Assembly (NCBI GenBank): GCA_030262855.1
Contig: JAJSZL010000002.1
Span: forward strand, 1,234-65,233
DNA: 64,000 nucleotides
Source: Candidatus Desulfofervidaceae bacterium
Lineage (GTDB): Bacteria; Desulfobacterota; Desulfofervidia; Desulfofervidales; Desulfofervidaceae
Direction of reading: 5' to 3'
Each line of letters starts with the position of its first letter. Positions within the stretch are counted from its first letter, which is position 1. The notes under the pieces were generated by a model. It did no database searches and was not told where the DNA came from. It saw only the letters and a list, made by a program, of their open reading frames with translations. Both the position numbers and the translations under genes were made by a program. This document shows positions 42,037 to 54,170 of the stretch, in pieces.

Positions 42037-42112
42037 GGGCCGTTGGCTCAACTGGCAGAGCAACGGACTCTTAATCCGTAGGTTGCAGGTTCGAGTCCTG
42101 CACGGCCCACCA
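42037..42112 (+). tRNA. tRNA-Lys (anticodon CTT), CCA encoded
   Basis: Acceptor stem GGGCCGT/ACGGCCC. Anticodon arm ACGGA-CTCTTAA-TCCGT. T-arm GCAGGTTCGAGTCCTGC. Discriminator A plus CCA. Confidence 0.93.
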
Positions 42113-42347: not shown

Positions 42348-42686
42348 ATGGCTATTATCAAAGCAGCCGAAATAGAAAACAAGCATCCTGGCACAGGAAG
42401 AATGATAGGGAGAATAATGGCTGATTATGTTTCTCGTGGGGATACAATTGATTTTGCAGGTTTTGAATCTTTCAGTAATTCCTTTGCTGATGAGTTTGTA
42501 AAAACCTTTATAGAAAAATATGGGAAAGAAGCCTTTCAGGAATTGAATTTTGTAAATACTAGTGAACTGCTTAAAACACTTCTCAAGCGGGCATTTGTCA
42601 GGAGAACTCTTGATGATAAAAGAGAAAAAAGTCCAATTGACTTTACACGGTGGGAACAGCTTAGAGTTTCTTCGTTGTTTGCTTGA
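42348..42686 (+). CDS. STAS-like (DUF4325-type) small protein
   Basis: 112 aa with a GGGAG RBS. The core GDTIDFAGFESFSNSFADEFV is typical of STAS-like/anti-anti-sigma-like domains. Its 3' end overlaps the next gene by 74 nt. Confidence 0.6.
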   Translation: MAIIKAAEIENKHPGTGRMIGRIMADYVSRGDTIDFAGFESFSNSFADEFVKTFIEKYGKEAFQELNFVNTSELLKTLLKRAFVRRTLDDKREKSPIDFTRWEQLRVSSLFA

Positions 42687-43461
42687 GTCTGAGATCGAAT
42701 GGGAATCTTCTTGCCCTAAAATTCTTGATCTTTCCCAGGTATTTTTTGTTACTCCGATAGTATGTGTATGGGTGAAATATTTTACCATCAAAAACTGGAA
42801 AACTCTTAAACCCTACAGTTATGAAGCTTCCCAATATTTAGAATGGATGAATATCTATGCGAATCAGAACTATGGAGACCAGAGATATATACCAACATTT
42901 CACCTGGTTGATGCAAGTGAGACCAACGAGGTAAGAAAAAGATTACTGGACATTTTCAAGAATTGGATGAATAAGGAAACCAGAGAATTTTTAAGTTACT
43001 CAATAAGCGAATTGATGGAAAATGTTTTTTTTCATGCTAAGTCTGAAGAAGGCTTGGTAATTCATGTTCAAAAATATGGAGCTTTTGACAATAGAATAGA
43101 AGCCTGTATAGTAGATTTTGGACAGGGAATAGCTAACTCCATGGCTGAAAATCCTGAATTTAGAGAGCGACCAGAAGAACAAAGATTTATAGCAGGGTTG
43201 ACACCTAGATGTACTTCCAAACCAGGCAGGCATACAGGAGAGGGATTAAGCTCTGTTCTTGAGTGGATTAAGCAAAATGATGATGCCCAAGGAGTGATTA
43301 TTTCTCAAAATTGTGTTTGGGGTAAACTTAAAAGAAAAGACGAAAAATGGTTGAAATACAATCTACCTAAATGGCCAGGTACTTTGATCTGGATGTCATT
43401 TCCTCGGGATTCCAGATTATCTCTTAATTCTGTGTGGGAAAAATTGGGATTTTCACTATAA
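42613..43461 (+). CDS. GHKL (histidine kinase/SpoIIAB-like) ATPase with an N-terminal STAS-like region
   Basis: ATG 42613 with a GGAGA RBS. N-box ELMENVFFH, G1 DFGQGI and G2 GEGLSS. The N-terminal ILDLSQVFFVTP is STAS-like. The track's longer start (42562) is unlikely. Confidence 0.65.
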   Translation: MIKEKKVQLTLHGGNSLEFLRCLLESEIEWESSCPKILDLSQVFFVTPIVCVWVKYFTIKNWKTLKPYSYEASQYLEWMNIYANQNYGDQRYIPTFHLVDASETNEVRKRLLDIFKNWMNKETREFLSYSISELMENVFFHAKSEEGLVIHVQKYGAFDNRIEACIVDFGQGIANSMAENPEFRERPEEQRFIAGLTPRCTSKPGRHTGEGLSSVLEWIKQNDDAQGVIISQNCVWGKLKRKDEKWLKYNLPKWPGTLIWMSFPRDSRLSLNSVWEKLGFSL

Positions 43462-44870: not shown

Positions 44871-45746
44871 CTAGATTATAAATGGGTCTATACCAAGGAA
44901 ACGCTCATGTTGGCTGCGATTTTGCAGAGGATGATAAATTACGCCATTCCAATCCCAAATAACCTTATTTCGGTATCTAATTTTTGTCGCGCACAGACGC
45001 TTTAAGAAAAGACGCCAAATAGAGATATAAGGATTAGAACAGCAATCCGCCTCATTACAGTCTCGTTCAGAACAGTCGTCACCGTTATTAAAATAATACT
45101 CACAACAAACTCTTGTGACGCCAGCAAATAAATCCACTATTTTTACCGAAGTGGCTAATTCTTTTCTTAAAGGGTCATGTTCCTTTTTGGAAATAAAATG
45201 AGGTCCAGACAGTTTTACTTGGTTAGTTCGAGCTAATTTTAAAATGGAGTCCCTAATCTGCTTTTCCCTAGAGATATTCCTATCTAAATACCATTTCAAA
45301 GAAGGAGCAGTAGGATATCTTCTTAGAACATAGTGACACCTCTTTGTAAAAGCAAAAATTCTCTTAAAACATAGCTCGTATCCCTGCCAGATATACCGTT
45401 CAAGTACGCTTTTATCTAATCCTGGATTTGTTCCAGTTTCTATTTTCTTTTTATCAAGGAAAAAAAAGGAAAAGATTAAAAAGCGGGTCTTTTCGAAAAA
45501 ATTGTCAATAGTATTAGCATAGAACTGATGTAAAAGTGAAGGATTACGTTTAACCGACCCTTTTAAATCAGACCACTTTCTCAATTGGGACTTCAAATAT
45601 GGCCTTGAAAAACGGCGGGCAATGTCATTCAATTCTTTTAAATCATTTTCGTCCCTGACAATTGCTATCGCTGATACAAAACTTCTTGTGCCTCCTCTGT
45701 AGGATACTCCAGTGTCTCCTGCTTCGTCTGAAATAGCAACGAACAT
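44871..45746 (-). CDS. DUF3800-family protein with a Cys-rich C-terminal region
   Basis: The start MFVAISDEAGDTG is typical of DUF3800 (xxxDESG). The C-terminal VCCEYYFNNGDDCSERDCNEADCCSNPY carries 7 Cys. The track's longer start (45821) would read through a GC-rich structured element. Confidence 0.6.
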   Translation of the reverse strand: MFVAISDEAGDTGVSYRGGTRSFVSAIAIVRDENDLKELNDIARRFSRPYLKSQLRKWSDLKGSVKRNPSLLHQFYANTIDNFFEKTRFLIFSFFFLDKKKIETGTNPGLDKSVLERYIWQGYELCFKRIFAFTKRCHYVLRRYPTAPSLKWYLDRNISREKQIRDSILKLARTNQVKLSGPHFISKKEHDPLRKELATSVKIVDLFAGVTRVCCEYYFNNGDDCSERDCNEADCCSNPYISIWRLFLKRLCATKIRYRNKVIWDWNGVIYHPLQNRSQHERFLGIDPFII

Positions 45747-46200
45747 AAAAACACCTCTGAATAAAAAAATGCCGCGTTTGCATCCCCCTCTGGGGATTGC
45801 GTCCCGACGCAGGCGGGACACGCGCGGCTTATTTATTTAATAATGCAGTTTAGCTTTTTTGTCAAGCACTTTTTACACAATGGGTAAAACCCTTGTTTTG
45901 AGTAGCCTGTCGTTTTTGTGCTTTATTCGTAAAGGGTGTAATGGCCGGACAGGTAGATTGACAGGTCTGTTGGCCTGTTAATCAAAAGGCTTGGCTGGTA
46001 GAAACAAGACATGATGGCCATAAATTACCAACACCATAGAAACACCTTTTAATTAACTTACTCAAATACCCGACGCTGTTATAAACCGTTCTGGGCAATA
46101 AAGAGGATATTAGGTGTAGATTATAAAGGATAATTATAGCAAGAATAGATTTTTTTTCTTGACAGAAAAAAGCGAGAGTGATAGGAGGTTAAAAAGAAAA

Positions 46201-46992
46201 ATGGTGCTAGAGAATAAAAGGAAGTTAGACAGTATTATGATATATCCTCAAATAGTTGATCTACCATTACTAGTTGATGCAACTAATTGGAGCTGGAGTA
46301 AAATGCAAGACACTAATTTCTGGATAGGTCATGAAATAAATGGAACAAAGTGGTTAGTGAAAGGACGAGGTAGCTTTTATGCCCTGAGAGAAAGGGCAGC
46401 TGCTTATTTGTTGCAAACAGTGGGTATAAATAGCCAGTCATCATCTTTTGTCATTCTTCCAGATAATTCTTTGCCTGTTGCAGAAAAGCCCGATATAGAA
46501 CGGTATCAGTTGGCTATTTGTTACATTGATGAGCATGTCGGCGATTGCGTAGATGGTGATAACTGTCCACTAAACAAACTGAATGAGCAATTCGATAACA
46601 CTTCGAAAAAAGTTTCTTTTTTAGAGACATGTTCTGTTAGTAATATAATTGATTGGGTCAAGTCAGAGGTGATGGCATACTTGTGTGGTGCTCATGAGCC
46701 ACCAGATAGATTATTTTCAAAAGACCACAGAATGTATGTAATCGATAATGAACAAATGTTCTCTACTAAACCGAGCAACCCTATAAAATGTACTTGGTTT
46801 GAGGAAGAATACGATGCAACTATGAATTTGACATTGGACCTCTGTGAACGGTTATCTAAAATAAATAAACGAGATATTCAGCTTTTCACAGCTATTCCAG
46901 ATGGATATGTTGTTGATAAATTATGGTCAATAACAGAGTTAATGGAGTCCACTGTGCAGTACGCAAAAGACTTTCTCAAGCAATATGGATAA
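46201..46992 (+). CDS. cassette 1: hypothetical protein, weakly HipA/lipid-kinase-like
   Basis: AGGAGG RBS at 46184-46189 with ATG 46201. The segments KWLVKG, ERAAAYLLQTVGI and GAHEPPDRLF...YVIDNEQMF are reminiscent of kinase catalytic/Mg loops. The functional call is low confidence. Confidence 0.55.
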   Translation: MVLENKRKLDSIMIYPQIVDLPLLVDATNWSWSKMQDTNFWIGHEINGTKWLVKGRGSFYALRERAAAYLLQTVGINSQSSSFVILPDNSLPVAEKPDIERYQLAICYIDEHVGDCVDGDNCPLNKLNEQFDNTSKKVSFLETCSVSNIIDWVKSEVMAYLCGAHEPPDRLFSKDHRMYVIDNEQMFSTKPSNPIKCTWFEEEYDATMNLTLDLCERLSKINKRDIQLFTAIPDGYVVDKLWSITELMESTVQYAKDFLKQYG

Positions 46993-47006
46993 TAAGGATA
47001 AAAAAT

Positions 47007-47075
47007 GTCTAACAAATCGCTCCACCTGACCGCTATTCTACTGTCCATAACGGCAGGTGAACTTAGTTGTTCAGC
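47007..47075 (+). repeat. attC-like site 1 (69 bp)
   Basis: R'' is GTCTAAC. Arms are CACCTGACCGCTAT / ATAACGGCAGGTG with an unpaired A. There are 9-nt spacers on both sides. R' is GTTCAGC. Confidence 0.75.
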
Positions 47076-47098
47076 AACAGATTGAAAATAGAGAGTAG

Positions 47099-48259
47099 AT
47101 GAGTATGAGTTTTGAAATTAATCTATGGAAAGAAGTTCTAGAGAAGAAAGCTTTCGACAATAATTATTTAAAGAATCTTGAAAATGAAATTGAAAAATCT
47201 TTATCATTTAGGTTAATTTCAAGGAAACAGCAACTAGAAAAACTAATAGAAGCCTATCAAAATGAACAACTTGTCTTAGTTCTTGGAGCAGGAGTATCAG
47301 TAGAATATGGTTTGCCGAATTGGGATGCACTGCTACAAAATCTTTTATTAACGAGTTTCAAAACAGAAACACAGCAACCACCTGAGAAATCTTTAATTCT
47401 TGCTAAATTATTTACGAAATTATTTTCGCCGAACCCTCTAATTGCGGCTAGATATTTGCGCAATTATTATAAACAAAACAAAAATACTTCAGTAAAAAAA
47501 TTTGAACAAGCAATTCGTGACACATTATATAAGCATTTAAATGAAAAAAAGAAATCTAATATTTTGTCTGAAATAATACAATTATGTGTTGCTCCTGGAA
47601 AAAGCCCAAACTTGGATAGTATTATAACATTCAATTATGATGACATTTTAGAGTCACATTTATCTCAATTAAACATTGAAATACCTTTTAAAACTATTTC
47701 GAAAGTTGGACAACGTCCGAAGCCAGGGGAGTTACCAATATACCATGTACATGGGTTTCTTCCCAGAGATGGTGATATTAGTGAAGATATTCAAATTACT
47801 CTTAGTGAGGATATATATCACCAACAATATAACAATATATATAGCTGGAACAATATTATACAACTAAATAAATATAGAGATAATGTATGTCTGTTTATAG
47901 GAATTTCGCTGTCTGATCCAAATTTAAGAAGATTGTTAGATATTGCTAAAGTTCAAAGAGGGAATGATGATCCAATTCATTTTATTATCCGTAAAAAATA
48001 TAATTCTTCTTTATTAGAAAATAATCTATCACAGATTCTTGATCAAAATCCAGATCTTTTAGATGAAAAGTCAAAAGCCAATCTTAAGCTTGATGAATCT
48101 GTAAAATATTTAGTAAGAGTTATGGAGAAGTTTGAAACACAAGATGATTTATCTTTTGGTATTAATACAATATGGGTTAACGACTATGAAGAAATTCCGT
48201 CTATTTTAAAATCGATTAGGAAAAGAGAACCAATAATTGGAAAGAATAAGCATAGCTGA
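47099..48259 (+). CDS. cassette 2: SIR2-like (SIR2_2 family) putative NAD+-hydrolase
   Basis: 386 aa with LVLGAGVSVEYGLPNW (dinucleotide loop), ITFNYDD (catalytic Asn) and IYHVHGF (catalytic His). The stop TGA lies inside the attC2 inverse core. Confidence 0.8.
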   Translation: MSMSFEINLWKEVLEKKAFDNNYLKNLENEIEKSLSFRLISRKQQLEKLIEAYQNEQLVLVLGAGVSVEYGLPNWDALLQNLLLTSFKTETQQPPEKSLILAKLFTKLFSPNPLIAARYLRNYYKQNKNTSVKKFEQAIRDTLYKHLNEKKKSNILSEIIQLCVAPGKSPNLDSIITFNYDDILESHLSQLNIEIPFKTISKVGQRPKPGELPIYHVHGFLPRDGDISEDIQITLSEDIYHQQYNNIYSWNNIIQLNKYRDNVCLFIGISLSDPNLRRLLDIAKVQRGNDDPIHFIIRKKYNSSLLENNLSQILDQNPDLLDEKSKANLKLDESVKYLVRVMEKFETQDDLSFGINTIWVNDYEEIPSILKSIRKREPIIGKNKHS

Positions 48260-48327
48260 ACAAGTTGCTCCACCTGACCGCTATTCCGCTGGCGCTCCAT
48301 AGCGGCAGGTGAGCTTGGTCTTTGGGC
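48255..48327 (+). repeat. attC-like site 2 (73 bp)
   Basis: R'' GCTGAAC is the exact complement of the GTTCAGC at the start of this cassette. Arms are GCTCCACCTGACCGCTAT / ATAGCGGCAGGTGAGC with unpaired C and A. The R' position reads TTTGGGC. Confidence 0.75.
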
Positions 48328-48338
48328 AGCAAAAAAGT

Positions 48339-49238
48339 ATGAATAAACTATATCTTTCGCCAAATAGTGTATCCAAGTTGTTATCAGATGAATCATGGGT
48401 AGAAACCTATTTCAAATTTTTTGAAGAAGCGGTTAATCATTTAGAAACCTGTAAATTCCCAGATAATGATCTTTTAAAAATACGCATTCTTGACCCCATG
48501 GGCCTGCGTTATTTGGACTATAGGAGTGAATTCCAGAGATGGATGTTGATAGCATACTACAAAAATAAAGGTTTGCTCAAAGCTTTCCATGATTTGGATA
48601 ATGACTTGAAATTGCACGATATGGCAAAGTCAAAATATGATGGAATTGAACTAGGACCAATTCCAGAAGATATCGCCCAGAATTTAAATGAAAAAGATCT
48701 TGATACGATAAGGAAAGCCAACATTATATTAGGCTACACAAAAATATCTATATTAAATACCTGCGGTCATTTTATTTCAGAATTATTCTTTTCATTTGAA
48801 GCAATGTGCAGAGTAATATGCATGTCTTCATGCCTTGAAATATTTTTAAAAACAATTACTCCAAATATCTCATTGCAACATCAGGATATATCAAAAGCTT
48901 TAAATCGTTTATCAAATCCTGAAAGAGATCGCGTTTTATGTAAAATGTGTAAAGCTGATTCTGTGTGTAAAAGTTATCCGGTTTTTCGATATTTAGCTGA
49001 TTTCTATTTGTTACTATATCATATGCGGATTATTCGAGATTATCGTAAAGAGTATTTTTTGACAGAAGGTTTAGCTAACAGACTTATTAATACATTTCTA
49101 TTGTATGGTTTCAGGGCAGTCTGTAAAGCTGAAAAGATCATGGGAAAATCAATTGGAAATAGAATGAGGTTTCCATTGTCTCTTTCTGAAGAAAAAGAAA
49201 ATGTTGAAATTATCTTATCCAAACTAAGACAGGTGTAG
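48339..49238 (+). CDS. cassette 3: hypothetical helical protein, no recognisable domain
   Basis: 299 aa from ATG 48339. The track's GTG 48309 lies inside attC2. Confidence 0.6.
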   Translation: MNKLYLSPNSVSKLLSDESWVETYFKFFEEAVNHLETCKFPDNDLLKIRILDPMGLRYLDYRSEFQRWMLIAYYKNKGLLKAFHDLDNDLKLHDMAKSKYDGIELGPIPEDIAQNLNEKDLDTIRKANIILGYTKISILNTCGHFISELFFSFEAMCRVICMSSCLEIFLKTITPNISLQHQDISKALNRLSNPERDRVLCKMCKADSVCKSYPVFRYLADFYLLLYHMRIIRDYRKEYFLTEGLANRLINTFLLYGFRAVCKAEKIMGKSIGNRMRFPLSLSEEKENVEIILSKLRQV

Positions 49239-49250
49239 TCTTATGACAAT

Positions 49251-49333
49251 GCCCAACAAGTTAGTGCACCAGACCGCCAACCCGCTGCGCCTTCGGCTTG
49301 CGGTTGTCGGTTAGGCTAGCTTTTGCGTTAGGA
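49251..49333 (+). repeat. attC-like site 3 (83 bp)
   Basis: R'' GCCCAAC is a perfect RYYYAAC and complements the TTGGGC at the cassette start. Arms are CACCAGACCGCCAACC / GGTTGTCGGTTAGG. R' is GTTAGGA. Confidence 0.7.
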
Positions 49334-49367
49334 AGAAATGTAGAAAAAAGAAAGTTAAGGAGAACGG

Positions 49368-49724
49368 ATGACATATTTCATAATTTCACTGATTTTCATG
49401 TTAGTAGGACGCAAACTTGGATGGTTTTTCAGTAAACGACTTTATACCACTTCATTCACAAGTATAGTTATTTTTGGTCTTATATGGGGAATTGTCGTGG
49501 CGGTAATAGTACGCAGTTTTATCATCTGGCAAAAACCAAGTTTGATTGTTCGATGGATTATGGGATTTGCCCTCGGAGCTTATGTTTCTATTCCAAATTT
49601 TGGACTTATGAACGAAGATAATATTTCAGATGAAATCATACGTGAACATGTTTTACTAAAGACAATCCCTGAAGTTACTTACATAATCGGATCGATTATC
49701 TTGGCTTATTTTGTGAAAATATAA
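49368..49724 (+). CDS. cassette 4: small integral membrane protein (3-4 TM)
   Basis: 118 aa with a GGAGAA RBS. The sequence is hydrophobic throughout. Confidence 0.6.
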   Translation: MTYFIISLIFMLVGRKLGWFFSKRLYTTSFTSIVIFGLIWGIVVAVIVRSFIIWQKPSLIVRWIMGFALGAYVSIPNFGLMNEDNISDEIIREHVLLKTIPEVTYIIGSIILAYFVKI

Positions 49725-49846
49725 GTGTTGTGAAAAAAGAGTGAAATGGGTCGAATTTTTATGGGCTGTTGCCTAAATCAAATCTTGGGTATTTTAGGGT
49801 TGTTGAGGTCAGGTCTTGAATTGTGAATTAGATAAAGAAAACAAAT

Positions 49847-49895
49847 TCCCAACAAACCGACCGATAAACGGCGCCGCTGAAATTGGGCGTTATGT
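49847..49895 (+). repeat. attC-like site 4 (short or partly degenerate)
   Basis: R'' TCCCAAC complements the TTAGGA at the cassette start at 5/6 positions. R' is GTTATGT. The internal arms are poor and it is only 49 bp. Confidence 0.4.
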
Positions 49896-50001
49896 ATACC
49901 TAAAAGGAAGCACCAATGGAAATTGACGAAGGAATAAAAAGGAAGTTTGAGATCTGATAAACATAGGCGATCAGCTAAAACATGGAAATGAGCATGGGCA
50001 A

Positions 50002-50577
50002 GTGCGCAGCGAGGCACATCGACAGGAGTGTATTGGCTGGCTTGCGTCAGCCCAAAACGTCGTCCATTTAGTTATAACAAACCCAAGTAATCCGTACAGG
50101 ACATGGGTAGATAAGATATGTAGCTCGGATCGAGGTTATTGTGTCCAAAAGTCGGTAGGCGAAGTCATCATGATCCTGAGGTTACTACTGCAAGATATCG
50201 AATCGGGCTTGTTGGCATCTATAGAGGATCAAACCAGGGCTTCTGTTTTTGATGATTTCTTAGATCATGCAAAAGAATACTTAAAACACAAGCGTAAGAA
50301 TGAAGCTGGTGTGATTGCTGGTGTTGTTTTTGAAGACACTTTACGGAGAATCTGCCGAAACGCGGGTATTACGGAAAAAGGTAAGAAACTAGACATATTG
50401 ATTGACAAGCTTGTAAAGGCGGGAATATTGACCCAGGTAAAAGCAAAGTGGGCTAAGGCCGCTGCACACGTCCGCACGAAGGCAACACACGCTCAATGGG
50501 ATGAATTCGAACTAGAGGACGTCAATACGACGATCAGTTTTACTGAAGAGCTAATACGCAAACATCTAAAACACTAA
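50002..50577 (+). CDS. cassette 5: HEPN-like (DUF4145-type) protein with an Rx4H motif
   Basis: C-terminal AAHVRTKATHAQW, where R158-x4-H163 is encoded at 50473-50490, preceded by helical repeats (VIAGVVFEDTLRRICRNAGI). The start is uncertain: GTG 50002 or ATG 50170. Confidence 0.55.
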   Translation: MRSEAHRQECIGWLASAQNVVHLVITNPSNPYRTWVDKICSSDRGYCVQKSVGEVIMILRLLLQDIESGLLASIEDQTRASVFDDFLDHAKEYLKHKRKNEAGVIAGVVFEDTLRRICRNAGITEKGKKLDILIDKLVKAGILTQVKAKWAKAAAHVRTKATHAQWDEFELEDVNTTISFTEELIRKHLKH

Positions 50578-50578
50578 T

Positions 50579-50632
50579 GTATAACAAGCAGCTTAACACG
50601 GACTAGCCAACCGGTTAGCCGTAGCGTTAGGC
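50579..50632 (+). repeat. attC-like site 5
   Basis: The outer inverse core GTATAAC pairs with the GTTATGT at the cassette start (5 W-C + 2 G-T). A nested GCTTAAC is also present. Arms are CTAGCCAACC / GGTTAGCCGTAG. R' GTTAGGC is a perfect GTTRRRY. Confidence 0.55.
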
Positions 50633-50677
50633 ACATAAACATGGTTTCATAAATTGATTGTTCTCGGAGGAGGAAAT

Positions 50678-50929
50678 ATGGACAAGTATACGAAATTTGT
50701 TCTTTCTGTAATTGCCATTTGCTTGATTGCGATAGTGATTAAGCTTTGGGAACCCAGACCTGTTTATAGTGGTTTTATGGATAAGGGGCCTACAATTGGT
50801 GATTTGATGAATCTTAGGAATCTAAAAGGCGCAAATCTAAAAAAAGAGAGAGAAAGAATTATAAGAAGCATTCCTATTGTGAAAGTATATGGGACCGTTG
50901 ATGTGTCAGGATCCGTATACTGCTATTGA
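50678..50929 (+). CDS. cassette 6: small single-TM protein
   Basis: GGAGGAGG RBS with ATG 50678. 83 aa containing one TM helix. Confidence 0.55.
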   Translation: MDKYTKFVLSVIAICLIAIVIKLWEPRPVYSGFMDKGPTIGDLMNLRNLKGANLKKERERIIRSIPIVKVYGTVDVSGSVYCY

Positions 50930-50950
50930 TGTCGAAAGAAATGAACCGTA

Positions 50951-51013
50951 GCATAACCAGCTGCTGAAGTCGGACTGGCAAATCCGCTGCGCTCCGTTGC
51001 CAACCGGTTACCC
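50951..51013 (+). repeat. attC-like site 6 (right boundary unresolved)
   Basis: R'' GCATAAC complements the TTAGGC at the cassette start at 5/6 positions. Arms are GTCGGACTGGCAA / TTGCCAACCGG. The R' candidates are GTTACCC (51007-51013) or GTATAAT (51016-51022). Confidence 0.5.
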
Positions 51014-51033
51014 GTGTATAATCATAGCCTGGT

Positions 51034-51063
51034 CAAAATAGCCCAAAATAGACCAAAATGACA
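51034..51063 (+). repeat. three tandem 10-mers (CAAAATAGCC CAAAATAGAC CAAAATGACA)
   Basis: Read directly from the sequence. Confidence 0.85.
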
Positions 51064-51396
51064 CCCAATTTGCATCCAGCTTTTAAGGTAAAAGTCGTTA
51101 GATCAAAAAGGTAAGTCAGATCCACTAGCCGCTTAGATTTCAGTTAGAAAAAGCTAGAAAAAGTGTGTTAGATGACTGCCTATTTCCTGCGTTTCCACAA
51201 CAACATGATAAGAAATAAAAGAGTGAGAAAAACAATGACAACACTTATGGCCAGGCTTTTAGGATCGTTTGAGGGGTTAGCGTGGGTTATCGTATGAAGA
51301 ATATAACTGTAGGGCAGATAAGGAAGTAATTCCATTTAGGGTATCAAAAGGAGCAAGCATATCCTCTTTTTTCATACCTGGCTCCTTATAAGTCAA

Positions 51397-51771
51397 TTAA
51401 ATGCCGATCTCCAGTGTTATCTTGCCATAATCCACGGTGGGAACCGTTCTTTTTCTATCGGTTTTTATCTTCTCTAATTTCACAAAACCCAAATCTGCCA
51501 GCAGTTTAACATCATCATTCACATTTTTTAAGTCTCTGCCAAGGATTTTAGCCAATTCATAGATAGAAGCGGGTTTATGTTTTCTAATAGCCCTTAACAC
51601 CTCAAGTCTTTTATCAGTCAGCACAGCCTTCAAAGCATCAATATTTTCAAAATAGACAGCTTCATGTCTTTTAACCTTCTCTCCCTTTTCCAATTTTTTC
51701 CAGGTAAGGGCAAACTCATTAAGGCTATCTTCTAGAGATTTAATGCCTATTTTAATATTTTTTACTTTCAT
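51397..51771 (-). CDS. winged-helix DNA-binding antitoxin candidate (TumA/HVO_A0114-like)
   Basis: 124 aa. RLEVLRAIRKHKPASIYELAKILGRDLKNVNDDVKLL is a wHTH. It overlaps the upstream toxin-like ORF by 4 nt. Confidence 0.6.
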   Translation of the reverse strand: MKVKNIKIGIKSLEDSLNEFALTWKKLEKGEKVKRHEAVYFENIDALKAVLTDKRLEVLRAIRKHKPASIYELAKILGRDLKNVNDDVKLLADLGFVKLEKIKTDRKRTVPTVDYGKITLEIGI

Positions 51772-52055
51772 AATTCACCTCTCTTTGCCCTTTTTACATC
51801 TTCCAAAAAATCCTTCACCAATTTATCTATGCTTTCAAATGAATAAGGTAATTCCTTATCAAAATAATGCTTATGATCCCCTTTCCCTTCAGCGTTATCA
51901 TAACCCACTATCCTCTGGCCATTCTCAATATAAACCAGAGAATATTTCAGCCCATGCGGTTTATCTTCAGTCCTTTTAACCTGCCAGATTTTCATTTCCA
52001 CAATGTTGCCCTGATTATCCACATTTTTAACATGAAAAACTAACCTGGCTTTCAT
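51768..52055 (-). CDS. TumE-family (DUF6516-like) toxin candidate
   Basis: About 95 aa from MKARLVFHV. The motifs EMKIWQV, GLKYSLVY, GYDNAEGKGDHKHY resemble the TumE family as I remember it. The track's longer start (52091) is unlikely. Confidence 0.55.
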   Translation of the reverse strand: MKARLVFHVKNVDNQGNIVEMKIWQVKRTEDKPHGLKYSLVYIENGQRIVGYDNAEGKGDHKHYFDKELPYSFESIDKLVKDFLEDVKRAKRGEL

Positions 52056-52361
52056 ATAAGGTATGATATACCAAAAGAGAATAAAAGGCAATAAAAAGTA
52101 TTTGCCCCTGAGGAGAAACAGAGCGGATATATCCGAAGGGTCTATTTTGTTTAGTTTGCACTAAAAAGGTAGACCCCCAAAAACACCTTTTTTTAAACTT
52201 TCTCAAGCGCAAAAACGGCAGGGCAGAGCGTATAATCCCGATAAAAGACAGCCTGGTAGCCGAGATAAGCACCTATACGCTTAAAAAGTGCTTCTCAGCG
52301 GAGGACAGACTATTTAAATTCAGTCGGTTCAGGGTGTGGATTTTTCTTTGGCACAATCCTG

Positions 52362-54170
52362 TTAATCTCCATAGCAGGCCAAACCGCAATTCAGGCATCT
52401 TTCTGCTTCTTCTAACGCCATTTCTTCTGTAAAGCCAAGCTCTACTTCTTGAAAGTCTTTTATTCTTTCAGAAACCGGTCTTTCAGGCATCTGGTGGCGT
52501 GGTTTTAGTGGCACTTTGTTTTTATCTATTACTGGCTCAGGCAAAAATGTTTTAAGCATCCGTTCCGGCGGTGTCACCTTACCCTTTTTAAGATAAAGGT
52601 GAATACTGCGGGCGGCCAATCTGGCTGTACCAATGGCATCCACTACCCGCTTTGGTCCCAAAACAACATCGCCAGCGGCAAAAATATAAGGAATGTTTGT
52701 CTGATAAGTTTCTGGATTGACTATAAGCGTGCCCCGTCTGGAAATCTCTAACTCTTTACCAATCGGGTCATTTTTGAAAAAGTCGGTCTCTGGACACTGA
52801 CCTATGGCTAAAATAACCGTATCCACACTCATGCGGGTTTCTGTCCCGGCTACAGGCACCGGACATCTGCGTCCACTCGCATCTGGTTCACCCAATTCCG
52901 TTTTAATGTATTCCACCTCTTTTAACACTCCATCTTTGCCAATGAAACACAACGGATTGGCAAGAAAGAAAAATCTTATTCCCTCTGCTTCAGCCGCTTC
53001 AATTTCTTCAGATAATGCAGGCATTTCTGCACGGCTGCGTCTGTAAATAATACATACTTCCTTTACACCCAAACGTATGGCTGTCCGGGCTGCATCCATG
53101 GCTACATTACCACCTCCCACTACCATTACCCGTGGGCCAATCTCAGGACGCTTACCTTCTGCTACCTCCCGGAGGAATTCTACCCCAGAGATAACGCCTT
53201 CTAAACCTTCTCCTTCTATCTTCAGATCCCGGGCATTCCAGGCCCCAGTAGCAATAAAAACGGCCTCATATCCTTTATCACGCAAATCTTGAAGAGTAAA
53301 TTCTTTGCCCAAGGCTGTGCTGGTGTGAGCCTCTATACCCAAACGCAAGATACCTTCTATTTCCCAGTCTAATACTTCCTGAGATAAACGATAATCAGGA
53401 ATACCATACCGCAGCATCCCACCTAACTTAGGCATGGCCTCAAAAATTGTCACCTGATGTCCTAACCGCCTCAAGAAATAGGCACAGGCTAGACCTCCAG
53501 GACCACCGCCAATAACGGCCACTTTATGTCCACTATCAGGTGCGACAAATAGAGACAAACGCTGGCCATTACGCCATTCATAATCAGCCACAAAGCGTTT
53601 TAAAAAGTTAATGGCCACAGCTTCATCTACCTGCCTGCGCCGACACCGTTCTTCACAGGGTCTAGGACAAACTCTCCCTAGAGTTAAAGGCATGGGCGTG
53701 TGTTCTTTAATAATCAACAGGGCTTCTTGGTGTCTCCTTTGTTTAATCTTTTGCACAAAGCGGGGGATATCTATTTGTGCTGGACAGGCCTGTTGACAAG
53801 GAGCCAAACAGTCATCTGTGCGATTAAATCGTAAAATGGGCGAAATGGGAGAAACAAGCTCCAACACATTTTGAGGACAAGCCTTAACGCACTTGCCACA
53901 ACCGATACAATTTTCTATGTCTATAATCGGCAAACCCTGCTCTCCTATGGTAATAGCCTCTTGCGGACAGACCTGCACACAGGAGCCCAAGCCAAGACAG
54001 CCAATCTTACAAAGCAAATTAATGCCGTATTTTTCTACTGCTTCTTTACAGTCTTTAACCCCATCAGGATAAAAAAAAGCGCGGGGCGCTCGTTTGCCAC
54101 CGCGACATTTTACAAAAGCATGCCTGGGAACTTTTTTCTTTTTCTTCTTGGGTTTAGCTTGTGTTGGCAT
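52362..54170 (-). CDS. Fe-S flavoprotein: N-terminal 2x[4Fe-4S] ferredoxin domain + GltD/NfnB-like NAD(P)H-dependent oxidoreductase
   Basis: 602 aa with CxxCxxCxxxCP x2, dinucleotide folds VIGGGPGGLA and VVGGGNVAMD, and an overall glutamate synthase small-subunit-like layout. Confidence 0.8.
   Translation of the reverse strand: MPTQAKPKKKKKKVPRHAFVKCRGGKRAPRAFFYPDGVKDCKEAVEKYGINLLCKIGCLGLGSCVQVCPQEAITIGEQGLPIIDIENCIGCGKCVKACPQNVLELVSPISPILRFNRTDDCLAPCQQACPAQIDIPRFVQKIKQRRHQEALLIIKEHTPMPLTLGRVCPRPCEERCRRRQVDEAVAINFLKRFVADYEWRNGQRLSLFVAPDSGHKVAVIGGGPGGLACAYFLRRLGHQVTIFEAMPKLGGMLRYGIPDYRLSQEVLDWEIEGILRLGIEAHTSTALGKEFTLQDLRDKGYEAVFIATGAWNARDLKIEGEGLEGVISGVEFLREVAEGKRPEIGPRVMVVGGGNVAMDAARTAIRLGVKEVCIIYRRSRAEMPALSEEIEAAEAEGIRFFFLANPLCFIGKDGVLKEVEYIKTELGEPDASGRRCPVPVAGTETRMSVDTVILAIGQCPETDFFKNDPIGKELEISRRGTLIVNPETYQTNIPYIFAAGDVVLGPKRVVDAIGTARLAARSIHLYLKKGKVTPPERMLKTFLPEPVIDKNKVPLKPRHQMPERPVSERIKDFQEVELGFTEEMALEEAERCLNCGLACYGD

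Follow-up and report, generated by a model that had tools for sequence, protein, structure and literature searches.

A very probable integron cassette array without an integrase, in decay, on a Candidatus Desulfofervidaceae chromosome

How does a row of gene cassettes come to lie on a bacterial chromosome with no integron integrase beside it, and what becomes of the recombination sites that are left? These questions are raised by a locus in a 64-kb stretch of DNA, here called the window, with positions counted from its first base. The window is part of a 69.6-kb contig from a metagenome-assembled genome (MAG) of Candidatus Desulfofervidaceae, phylum Thermodesulfobacteriota (locus tags LWW94_00650 and LWW94_00660); the family includes Ca. 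Desulfofervidus, a thermophilic syntrophic partner of methane- and alkane-oxidising archaea. The window is chromosomal, with recA, cinA, sucCD and a glutamate-synthase-like gene (52362-54170) as flanks. Six co-oriented open reading frames (ORFs) on the + strand are each followed by a palindrome-like element (Table 1), and a preliminary description had read these elements as attC sites and the locus as an attC-site cluster without an integron-integrase (CALIN). Our analysis supports that interpretation: surrogate attC models accept five of the six sites, and the locus is very probably a genuine integrase-less array of six cassettes (46225-51025) that is now decaying.

In the mechanism that we propose, six gene cassettes, each consisting of an ORF and its attC, would have been acquired independently and placed head to tail. 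An integron integrase (IntI) would act on the folded bottom strand of attC and cut an AAC triplet between its A and its C, i.e. at G|TT on the top strand, where the bar marks the crossover, so the six bases with which a cassette begins should be complementary to the inverse core that closes the same cassette at its 3' end. With no integrase left to maintain it, the array would decay, and we infer relaxed selection on recombination after the integrase was lost, or in its absence.

Table 1. Features of the locus in window coordinates. R'' is the inverse core; R1 and R2 are the covariance models described in the text.
Feature	Positions	Strand	Details
Divergent ORF upstream of array	44871-45746	-	291 residues, N-terminus MFVAISDEAGD
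Left junction G|TTAGAC	46224-46230	+	crossover 46224|46225, start of cassette 1
Cassette 1	46225-47069	+	ORF 46237-46992 (native start); LWW94_00650, annotated from 46201
attC1	47007-47075	+	R'' GTCTAAC; R1 65.0 bits; R2 57.6 bits, E = 2.7e-13
Cassette 2	47070-48321	+	starts TTCAGC; ORF 47099-48259, defence-type SIR2-domain protein
attC2	48255-48327	+	R'' GCTGAAC; R1 85.3 bits; R2 75.0 bits, E = 3.7e-18
Cassette 3	48322-49327	+	starts TTGGGC; ORF 48339-49238 (LWW94_00660), all-helical protein
attC3	49251-49333	+	R'' GCCCAAC; R1 18.3 bits, E = 0.0045; R2 29.0 bits, E = 2.7e-5
Cassette 4	49328-49889	+	starts TTAGGA; ORF 49368-49724, small membrane protein, about 3 hydrophobic segments (hydropathy)
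attC4 remnant	49847-49895	+	R'' TCCCAAC; R1 9.0 bits, E = 6.3; R2 11.4 bits, E = 2.3
Cassette 5	49890-50626	+	starts TTATGT; ORF 50002-50577, DUF4145/HEPN-like gene, disrupted
attC5	50579-50632	+	R'' GTATAAC; R1 17.6 bits, E = 0.008; R2 28.2 bits, E = 4.7e-5
Cassette 6	50627-51018	+	starts TTAGGC; ORF 50678-50929, small membrane protein, N-terminal hydrophobic segment (hydropathy)
attC6, right end of array	50951-51022	+	R'' GCATAAC; R1 partial match, 11.5 bits, E = 0.94; R2 19.2 bits, E = 0.015
Possible tyrosine recombinase relic	51157-51258	-	box II-like CHCFSHSF; IntI profile 6.1 bits, window-wide E = 0.63
TumE toxin and HVO_A0114/MarR-like winged-helix gene pair	51397-52091	-	PF20126 E = 8e-16; right border of array

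The attC sites and their metagenome family

What identifies these elements as attC sites? The defining features are the R boxes, an L box, an unpaired central spacer, extrahelical bases and a variable terminal structure (Cury et al. 2016, PMC4889954). Only attC1 is fully canonical: its R'' box is followed by a 5-nucleotide (nt) spacer, a 3-bp L box, an extrahelical C, 6 bp, an extrahelical A and an inner stem, with GTTCAGC as R' box, and the extrahelical C and A read as G and T on the bottom strand, which folds as DNA at -10.1 kcal/mol. The AAC triplet is present in all six R'' boxes, and the GTT triplet in sites 1, 3, 4 and 5; the R-box feature is therefore complete in four sites and partial in two. 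The preliminary description had given every site a GTT-type distal core, which is right for those four; site 2 reads TTT (48321-48323), and site 6 has lost its R' box. As for the hairpin, attC1 and attC2 are canonical (the equal 9-nt spacers that had been noted in these two are indeed there), sites 3, 5 and 6 are partial, having mismatches or a central deletion, and site 4 has none.

A further test was built independently of the window. Public metagenome contigs were scanned with the common core of attC1 and attC2, TCCACCTGACCGC-N10-36-CGGCAGGTGA (23 fixed bases), and this core was found on at least 120 contigs, versus less than one chance match by our own estimate. Nearly every copy has xxxTAAC 7 bases upstream and GTTRRRY about 8 bases downstream, and many of the contigs carry co-oriented arrays with up to 7 diverse sites. 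IntI homologs are encoded on 9 of the 120 listed contigs, in divergent as well as co-oriented arrangements; the one on contig L122 contains the integron-specific patch and shares 83-86% identity with proteins called 'integron integrase' by NCBI. This co-occurrence with IntI genes is the one indirect sign that such sites would be recombined as a folded bottom strand. For 122 sites, which have the consensus GCTTGGTCGTT, 95% of cells pair in the canonical attC structure, versus 24-44% after sliding of the partners, and at positions that the search pattern leaves unfixed the covariation is stronger than in any of 500 shuffles.

In environmental metagenomes, this family (...GCTCCACCTGACCGCTATTCCGCTGGCGCTCCATAGCGGCAGGTGAGC...) is homogeneous and extremely common, with at least 120 contigs. 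The IntIs that accompany it share 83-86% identity with IntIs from Cloacimonadota (Ca. Celaenobacter) and Marinimicrobia MAGs, and the family is also present here, in a Thermodesulfobacteriota chromosome.

Two covariance models were made from metagenome sites only, R1 for the narrow family and R2 from 111 sites that include divergent ones, and both were run across the entire 64 kb with filters off. R2 places full-length + strand matches on all six sites, at the coordinates given in the preliminary description, and the matches are significant for five (E <= 0.015), the exception being attC4; elsewhere in the 64 kb it finds nothing below E = 0.3 besides the reverse strand of attC1. Plasmid R100 served as positive control: R2 detects the aadA1 attC of its class 1 integron with 57.9 bits, the sole significant match in 8 kb (its own reverse strand scores 11.4 bits, E = 0.28). 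In other words, a model validated on a classical attC accepts five of the six sites of the window; rejection of them all would have told against the array.

Folding gives a less uniform picture. All six elements had been described as imperfect palindromes, and against shuffled sequence this stands for attC1 (z = -2.5) and attC2 (z = -2.8); sites 3-6 fold no better than shuffles (z > -0.9; -0.8 for attC3 and -0.5 for attC4). Might the elements then be repetitive extragenic palindrome (REP)-like sequences, or terminators that follow co-oriented genes? The folding of sites 3-6 and the failure of site 4 in the models would suit such a reading. We nevertheless give it next to no probability and consider it effectively refuted: members of the attC1/attC2 family form arrays with as many as 7 sites and have integron integrases as neighbours, the family-trained model recognises the class 1 attC of R100, and a specific fit to attC is given by the AAC/GTT boxes, by which extrahelical bases occur and how they are spaced, by the cassette-circle signature and by a compensatory TTGGAC/GTCCAAC change (the last two are described below). 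As judged by these models and motifs, the palindromes of the window are attC sites.

The sites differ in what they have lost. In attC2, the hairpin and the extrahelical bases are canonical, and a G→T change at 48321 turns the GTT of the R' box into TTT; the model flags this R' pair as non-canonical, and 111 of the 122 family members pair C-G there, i.e. carry GTT. attC3 retains intact R boxes (R' GTTAGGA), while its L box and proximal stem are degraded, with 5 unpaired positions under R2; it is 92-96% identical over 25-39 nt to attC sites of three metagenome loci (L105, L145 and L128). In attC4, R'' and R' (GTTATGT) are kept and the central part is gone, little being left beyond the R boxes and the 3' spacer, and at 49 nt the site falls below the 58-nt minimum of the 111 metagenome sites. 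attC5 (54 nt, R boxes intact, R' GTTAGGC) corresponds to an attC6-type site minus about 30 central nt in an alignment with attC6 and the sites of loci L120 and L188. Finally, attC6 keeps R'' and the stem and has a destroyed R' box with no intact GTT; it is 93% identical over 31-41 nt to the intact sites of L188 and L120, and this homology runs to GGTTACCCGT and stops where those sites carry GTTAG. Since only attC1 is intact and the other sites, as well as cassette 5, are damaged, most junctions are probably frozen. At best, an IntI from elsewhere in the genome or from a mobile element could act in trans on attC1 and on sites 3 and 5, whose R boxes are intact.

Cassette junctions, boundaries and mobility

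The cut at G|TT leads to a prediction that can be checked at every junction, and in this cassette-circle test the six bases after G|TT are compared with the reverse complement of the inverse core of the next cassette. The six inverse cores (at the first base of each attC) and the five junction hexamers (at the first base of cassettes 2-6) are all where the preliminary description had put them, and its match counts of 6/6, 6/6, 5/6, 4/6 plus 2 G-T, and 5/6 are correct. Over the five junctions, 26 of 30 positions match, which 2 of 120 permuted pairings equal; with the left boundary added, the count is 32 of 36, equalled by 3 of 720 permutations. Pairing with the site's own inverse core yields only 3-4 of 6. 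An external calibration is available from 68 consecutive attC pairs in metagenome arrays, where the mean is 3.5 of 4 variable positions versus 2.12 for shuffled partners (maximum 2.43 in 5000 shuffles), and over the same four positions the five junctions of the window score 4, 4, 3, 2 and 3. Complementarity is thus better than in shuffled pairings both here and at the external junctions, and the cassette-circle test is a valid diagnostic. A further claim, that each inverse core lies at or overlaps a stop codon, applies to cassettes 2 and 5; in cassettes 1, 3 and 6 the stop precedes the core by 12-22 nt, and in cassette 4 the distance is 123 nt.

Where does the array begin? Its start had been placed at 46150, and we move it to 46225. 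The GTTAGAC found there is the exact reverse complement of the inverse core of cassette 1, GTCTAAC, and occurs a single time in 46000-51200. The boundary is fixed at 46224|46225 because homologs of cassette 1 elsewhere show the G|TTAGAC junction. In metagenome locus L212, an attC of 62.4 bits that ends ...CATGACG|TTAGACAGTATTATGATATATCC precedes an 88%-identical cassette 1 homolog, and the window is identical to this locus over the 28 nt that follow G|TT, with no relation in the preceding DNA. In loci L201-L203, junction and R'' (ATGTCTAACAAATCGCT) are the same around a 73%-identical homolog, which is then followed by an attC of 25.2 bits. Upstream of 46224 there is no attC model match and no recognisable attI; attI sites are known for few integron classes only (PMC4889954). 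The 400 bp upstream of 46224 have no similarity to 120 integron-rich metagenome loci, and in those loci no similarity was found either to the two flanks of the array (45830-46240 on the left, 51023-51400 on the right) or to the cassette proteins of the window.

The DNA just before cassette 1 has a feature of its own. An AGGAGG (46183-46188) and an ATG (46201) lie in non-cassette DNA, in frame with the cassette 1 ORF, so host sequence may be needed to express this first cassette and may provide its translation start. The start at 46201, which NCBI uses, adds 12 non-conserved residues; about two-thirds of 27 cassette 1 homologs (source protein excluded) start at MxYPxI, which corresponds to the ATG at 46237.

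Evidence on mobility and boundaries came from loci L201-L203, L207-L210, L212 and L213. Homologs of cassettes 1 and 3 are themselves cassettes in other arrays, where they have other neighbours and each its own attC; in other words, the ORFs of the window do not form a fixed syntenic block, as they might have done had the cassette reading been wrong. For example, homologs of cassette 3 adjoin acetyltransferase and DUF4365 genes in other arrays, and two of them, P0009 (47% identity) and P0004 (73% identity), have attC sites of 33.4 and 31.5 bits, respectively. A compensatory change is also seen: a cassette in L213 starts TTGGAC and has the inverse core GTCCAAC, where the window has TTGGGC and GCCCAAC. 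In L201-L203, the homolog of cassette 1 is a lone cassette with no attC upstream. Additionally, the cassette that precedes the closest cassette 1 relative in L212 (109-1040) encodes a TIR_2-domain protein and has a canonical attC of 62.4 bits; it is another defence-type cassette of the same pool.

The integrase and the origin of the array

Is there an integrase that we have overlooked? The window covers 46 kb to the left of the array and 13 kb to its right, and in it tblastn with IntI1, XerD and the L122 IntI gives only matches with E > 0.5 (the IntI1 probe is identical to R100 IntI1 and matches PDB 2a3v at E = 9e-88). A profile hidden Markov model (HMM) of 107 IntI sequences, run over all six frames of the 64 kb, reaches a best E of 0.63, whereas short control contigs with true fragments of intI yield E = 1e-10 to 1e-28. 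In Pfam and NCBIfam searches, every ORF between 42.5 and 52.1 kb has another assignment or none. The statement that no intI is visible is thereby borne out. A complete and functional integron whose integrase was missed would draw on the fact that IntI genes can be divergent, and that divergent and co-oriented geometries both occur in this attC family. Set against the null results of three probes and the IntI profile, the scores of true fragments and the assignments, other or absent, of the ORFs within 5 kb on either side, it is very unlikely, and we reject a missed intact integrase in the window. The divergent ORF directly upstream of the array is not an integrase: it has no significant Pfam, NCBIfam, PADLOC or PHROGs match (only RLMM_N, below the Pfam cutoff) and no homolog on the 120 integron-rich metagenome contigs.

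A CALIN is defined as two or more attC sites on one strand, each less than 4 kb from the next, with no intI nearby (Cury et al. 2016, PMC4889954; IntegronFinder). Here, five significant sites lie on the + strand with start-to-start distances of 372-1326 nt, and no integron-integrase gene is present in 64 kb, the caveat being the possible relic at 51157-51258; the locus therefore falls within the published definition. It does not qualify as a complete integron, as no intI with the IntI-specific extra domain adjoins the array.

How, then, was the integrase left behind? The explanation to which we give about an even chance is that the array arrived, or was left, without one: an IntI acting in trans would have inserted cassettes at a non-att site (attG), or a rearrangement would have split array from integrase, and an IntI elsewhere in the genome may still service the array. 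Several observations favour this. Upstream of G|TTAGAC there is neither an attC nor a recognisable attI, cassette 1 stands alone in L201-L203, and the locus is variable, lies beside tRNA-Lys and holds other defence- or toxin-antitoxin-like genes. Moreover, insertion of cassettes at GWT genomic sites by the attG route has been published, together with the resulting single attC sites lacking an integron-integrase (SALINs; Loot et al. 2023, 10.1101/2022.09.11.507474), and 95% of CALINs have been reported to be without nearby intI pseudogenes. As in the SALIN/attG case, the first cassette here abuts non-att DNA at G|TT and has a lone counterpart in L201-L203. The likeness ends at the size and the right end: there are six cassettes rather than one, which is large for a single insertion event, and the right junction is not a clean or recognisable attC x attG product, G-W-T being absent at the expected position of the attC6 R' box.

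We favour this origin over decay of a complete integron in situ, an explanation that we regard as distinctly less probable, in which the stretch at 51157-51258 on the - strand would be what remains of the integrase. A 378-nt stretch to the right of attC6 is the best of 169 window tiles in the IntI HMM search (the next tile scores 3.6 bits), none of 1500 shuffles reaches its 6.1 bits, and weak collinear tblastn matches fall in the same place and frame. The general decay of the sites would fit a long absence of the integrase, and in two metagenome loci, L163 and L207, an intI gene that is definite but truncated is placed and oriented in the same way with respect to a + strand attC. Yet the 6.1 bits extend over 22 residues with E = 0.63, the catalytic Arg is not conserved, and box II is common to all tyrosine recombinases, so the stretch could just as well derive from an island integrase associated with tRNA-Lys. 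Additionally, neither of the known integron geometries has a convergent integrase gene at the array's distal end. The stretch may be a tyrosine-recombinase relic, which is not established. A further weak IntI-like stretch lies at 51280-51396 on the - strand. An island integrase gene linked to the tRNA was also sought between 42.1 and 46.2 kb, and this candidate was rejected.

The two metagenome loci are of interest in themselves. In L163 (8363-9291) and L207 (2812-6146), a + strand attC site or array of cassettes abuts the 3' side of a truncated - strand intI; just the N-terminal half of intI is left, and in L163 the array of the integron itself continues on the other side. This arrangement suggests that cassettes inserted into, or replaced, the 3' half of intI.

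Weighing all this, we hold to the reading of a genuine six-cassette array in decay, and there are points that count against it. attC4 is not significant alone, although its alignment is full-length at the predicted coordinates. R1 and R2 are surrogates for the attC model of IntegronFinder, and their E-values are roughly calibrated. The frameshift in cassette 5 and single-base changes of the GTT→TTT type could be assembly errors of the MAG. No close genome relative was found in which cassette order could be compared between strains. Lastly, the view is limited to 64 kb of one MAG contig, and an integrase may lie elsewhere in the genome; among the best 120 IntI homologs, none is named for the source MAG.

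Cargo, neighbours and significance

What do the cassettes carry? The preliminary description had named a SIR2 protein, a HEPN-like protein, a kinase-like protein and membrane peptides, and each of these assignments is upheld. The cassette 2 protein matches Pfam SIR2_2 (E = 2.4e-15) and, in PADLOC, ThsA (E = 1.1e-22), LmuA (2.8e-16) and Dsr1 (5e-11). The protein of cassette 1 has no Pfam, PADLOC or PHROG match; its AlphaFold2 model (predicted local distance difference test score, pLDDT, 82) is similar in Foldseek to HipA, CtkA, HipT and PI3K (E about 3e-4, probability 1.0, TM 0.46-0.50), and the predicted fold is that of a kinase of the HipA/CtkA/HipT/PI3K type. Cassette 5 encodes a DUF4145 protein (Pfam E = 2.3e-5) with the Rx4H motif RTKATH at residue 158. 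Its gene is disrupted: the first 13 codons (49916-49954, MEIDEGIKRKFEI) end at a stop, and the remainder is open in another frame (49951-50577, with a GTG at 50002). The homologs are about 220 residues long and the ORF of the window is short by about 30 N-terminal residues; tblastn with two of them, P0158 and P0160, passes through the stop, with the N-terminus in another frame. Cassette 3 has only 9 homologs among 5.8 billion proteins, none with a Pfam domain, and its model (pLDDT 79) has no match in the PDB (best E = 0.2). Cassettes 4 and 6 encode membrane proteins by hydropathy; no family match was found for the former in the Pfam, PADLOC and PHROG libraries, and in the latter a ribosome-binding site (GGAGGAGG) lies ahead of the ATG at 50678. 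As predicted from sequence and structure models, this cargo looks typical of cassette-borne defence or toxin modules and would fit the published picture, and the proteins of cassettes 1, 3, 4 and 6 are reasonable candidates for defence screens.

The array lies within a low-GC stretch of about 10 kb, bounded on the left by tRNA-Lys (42037-42112) and on the right by the TumE toxin/winged-helix pair. This pair has no attC of its own; toxin-antitoxin cassettes have been reported to stabilise chromosomal integron arrays. Directly after tRNA-Lys comes a pair of overlapping ORFs, 42348-42686 (112 residues) and 42562-43461 (299 residues); the latter has a weak HATPase_c_2 match, a phrog_3364 match (E = 8.5e-23) and a weak match to the DrmA N-terminus, and the pair could be another defence-type module of the variable region. 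Between the divergent ORF and cassette 1, a GC-rich, Y-shaped (three-way) hairpin at 45771-45829 stands out from AT-rich surroundings, with an A-run and a T-rich run as its flanks; its folding reaches z = -3.7 on either strand, and it has no copy in 211 fetched loci and looks like a bidirectional terminator or an insulator. The 3' end of tRNA-Lys has no repeat that would mark the limit of an island. A synteny scan of genome contigs, made with the histidine kinase left of tRNA-Lys, gave only paralogous kinase/binding-protein pairs at 53% identity, which were not syntenic and had no tRNA beside them. Rfam has no match in the array region, and a promoter/terminator scan found 41 promoter-like sites versus 34 +/- 5 expected, no better than chance.

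How does this locus compare with known systems? In the model alignment, its architecture is identical to that of the aadA1 attC of R100, from the R'' xxxTAAC, the 5-nt unpaired spacer, the 3-bp L box and the R' GTTRRRY to the extrahelical base, the 6 bp, the second extrahelical base, the inner stem and the variable loop, and even the extrahelical letters agree (C and A on top, G and T on the bottom). The primary sequence of the stem differs, and R100 has an intact intI1 and an attI beside its cassettes where the window has none. The sedentary integrons of the Vibrio superintegron type are likewise chromosomal and carry small defence- or toxin-like cassettes (Darracq et al. 2024, 10.1101/2024.07.02.601686), and the near-identity of attC1 and attC2, which belong to one homogeneous family, is as it is there. 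Those integrons are placed above 19 attC sites by one threshold (Cury et al. 2016, PMC4889954) and above 10 cassettes by another (Darracq et al. 2024, 10.1101/2024.07.02.601686), whereas the window has six cassettes, no integrase and heterogeneous, decayed sites; occurrence in every genome of a species is the alternative mark of a sedentary integron. Among CALINs, of which 279 were counted in one survey (Cury et al. 2016, PMC4889954) and 2,961 in 21,105 genomes later, the size is typical (published mean, 5 attC sites), the cargo is unrelated to antibiotic resistance, and there is no clear intI pseudogene, as in 95% of them (PMC4889954). The difference is not categorical: the host is a Candidatus Desulfofervidaceae chromosome, and the decay of most sites is unusually explicit. 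In the literature searched, no integron work on Desulfofervidus or Candidatus Desulfofervidaceae was found, nor any on the attC core sequence.

CALINs are common and defence cargo in cassettes has already been published, such that current understanding is unchanged by this locus. A broader view, which we think rather unlikely, would join three things: an active defence-cassette pool that crosses phyla, an array that serves as a landing pad and an undescribed route by which integrons inactivate their own integrase. If it were true, the pool would extend through sediment and vent communities, with the attC1/attC2 family common to arrays of the Cloacimonadota/Marinimicrobia type; the landing pad would arise from cassette insertion outside any integron, host DNA giving the ribosome-binding site and the start codon; and an array that lies against the 3' side of a broken intI, as in L163, L207 and perhaps here, would mark integrons that have inactivated their own integrase.

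In closing, an integrase-less cassette array can be correctly recognised by reading raw sequence alone. For the biology of the family, the locus provides one CALIN from Candidatus Desulfofervidaceae whose cargo is defence- or toxin-like, and it shows in detail the decay that attC sites undergo once the integrase is gone.

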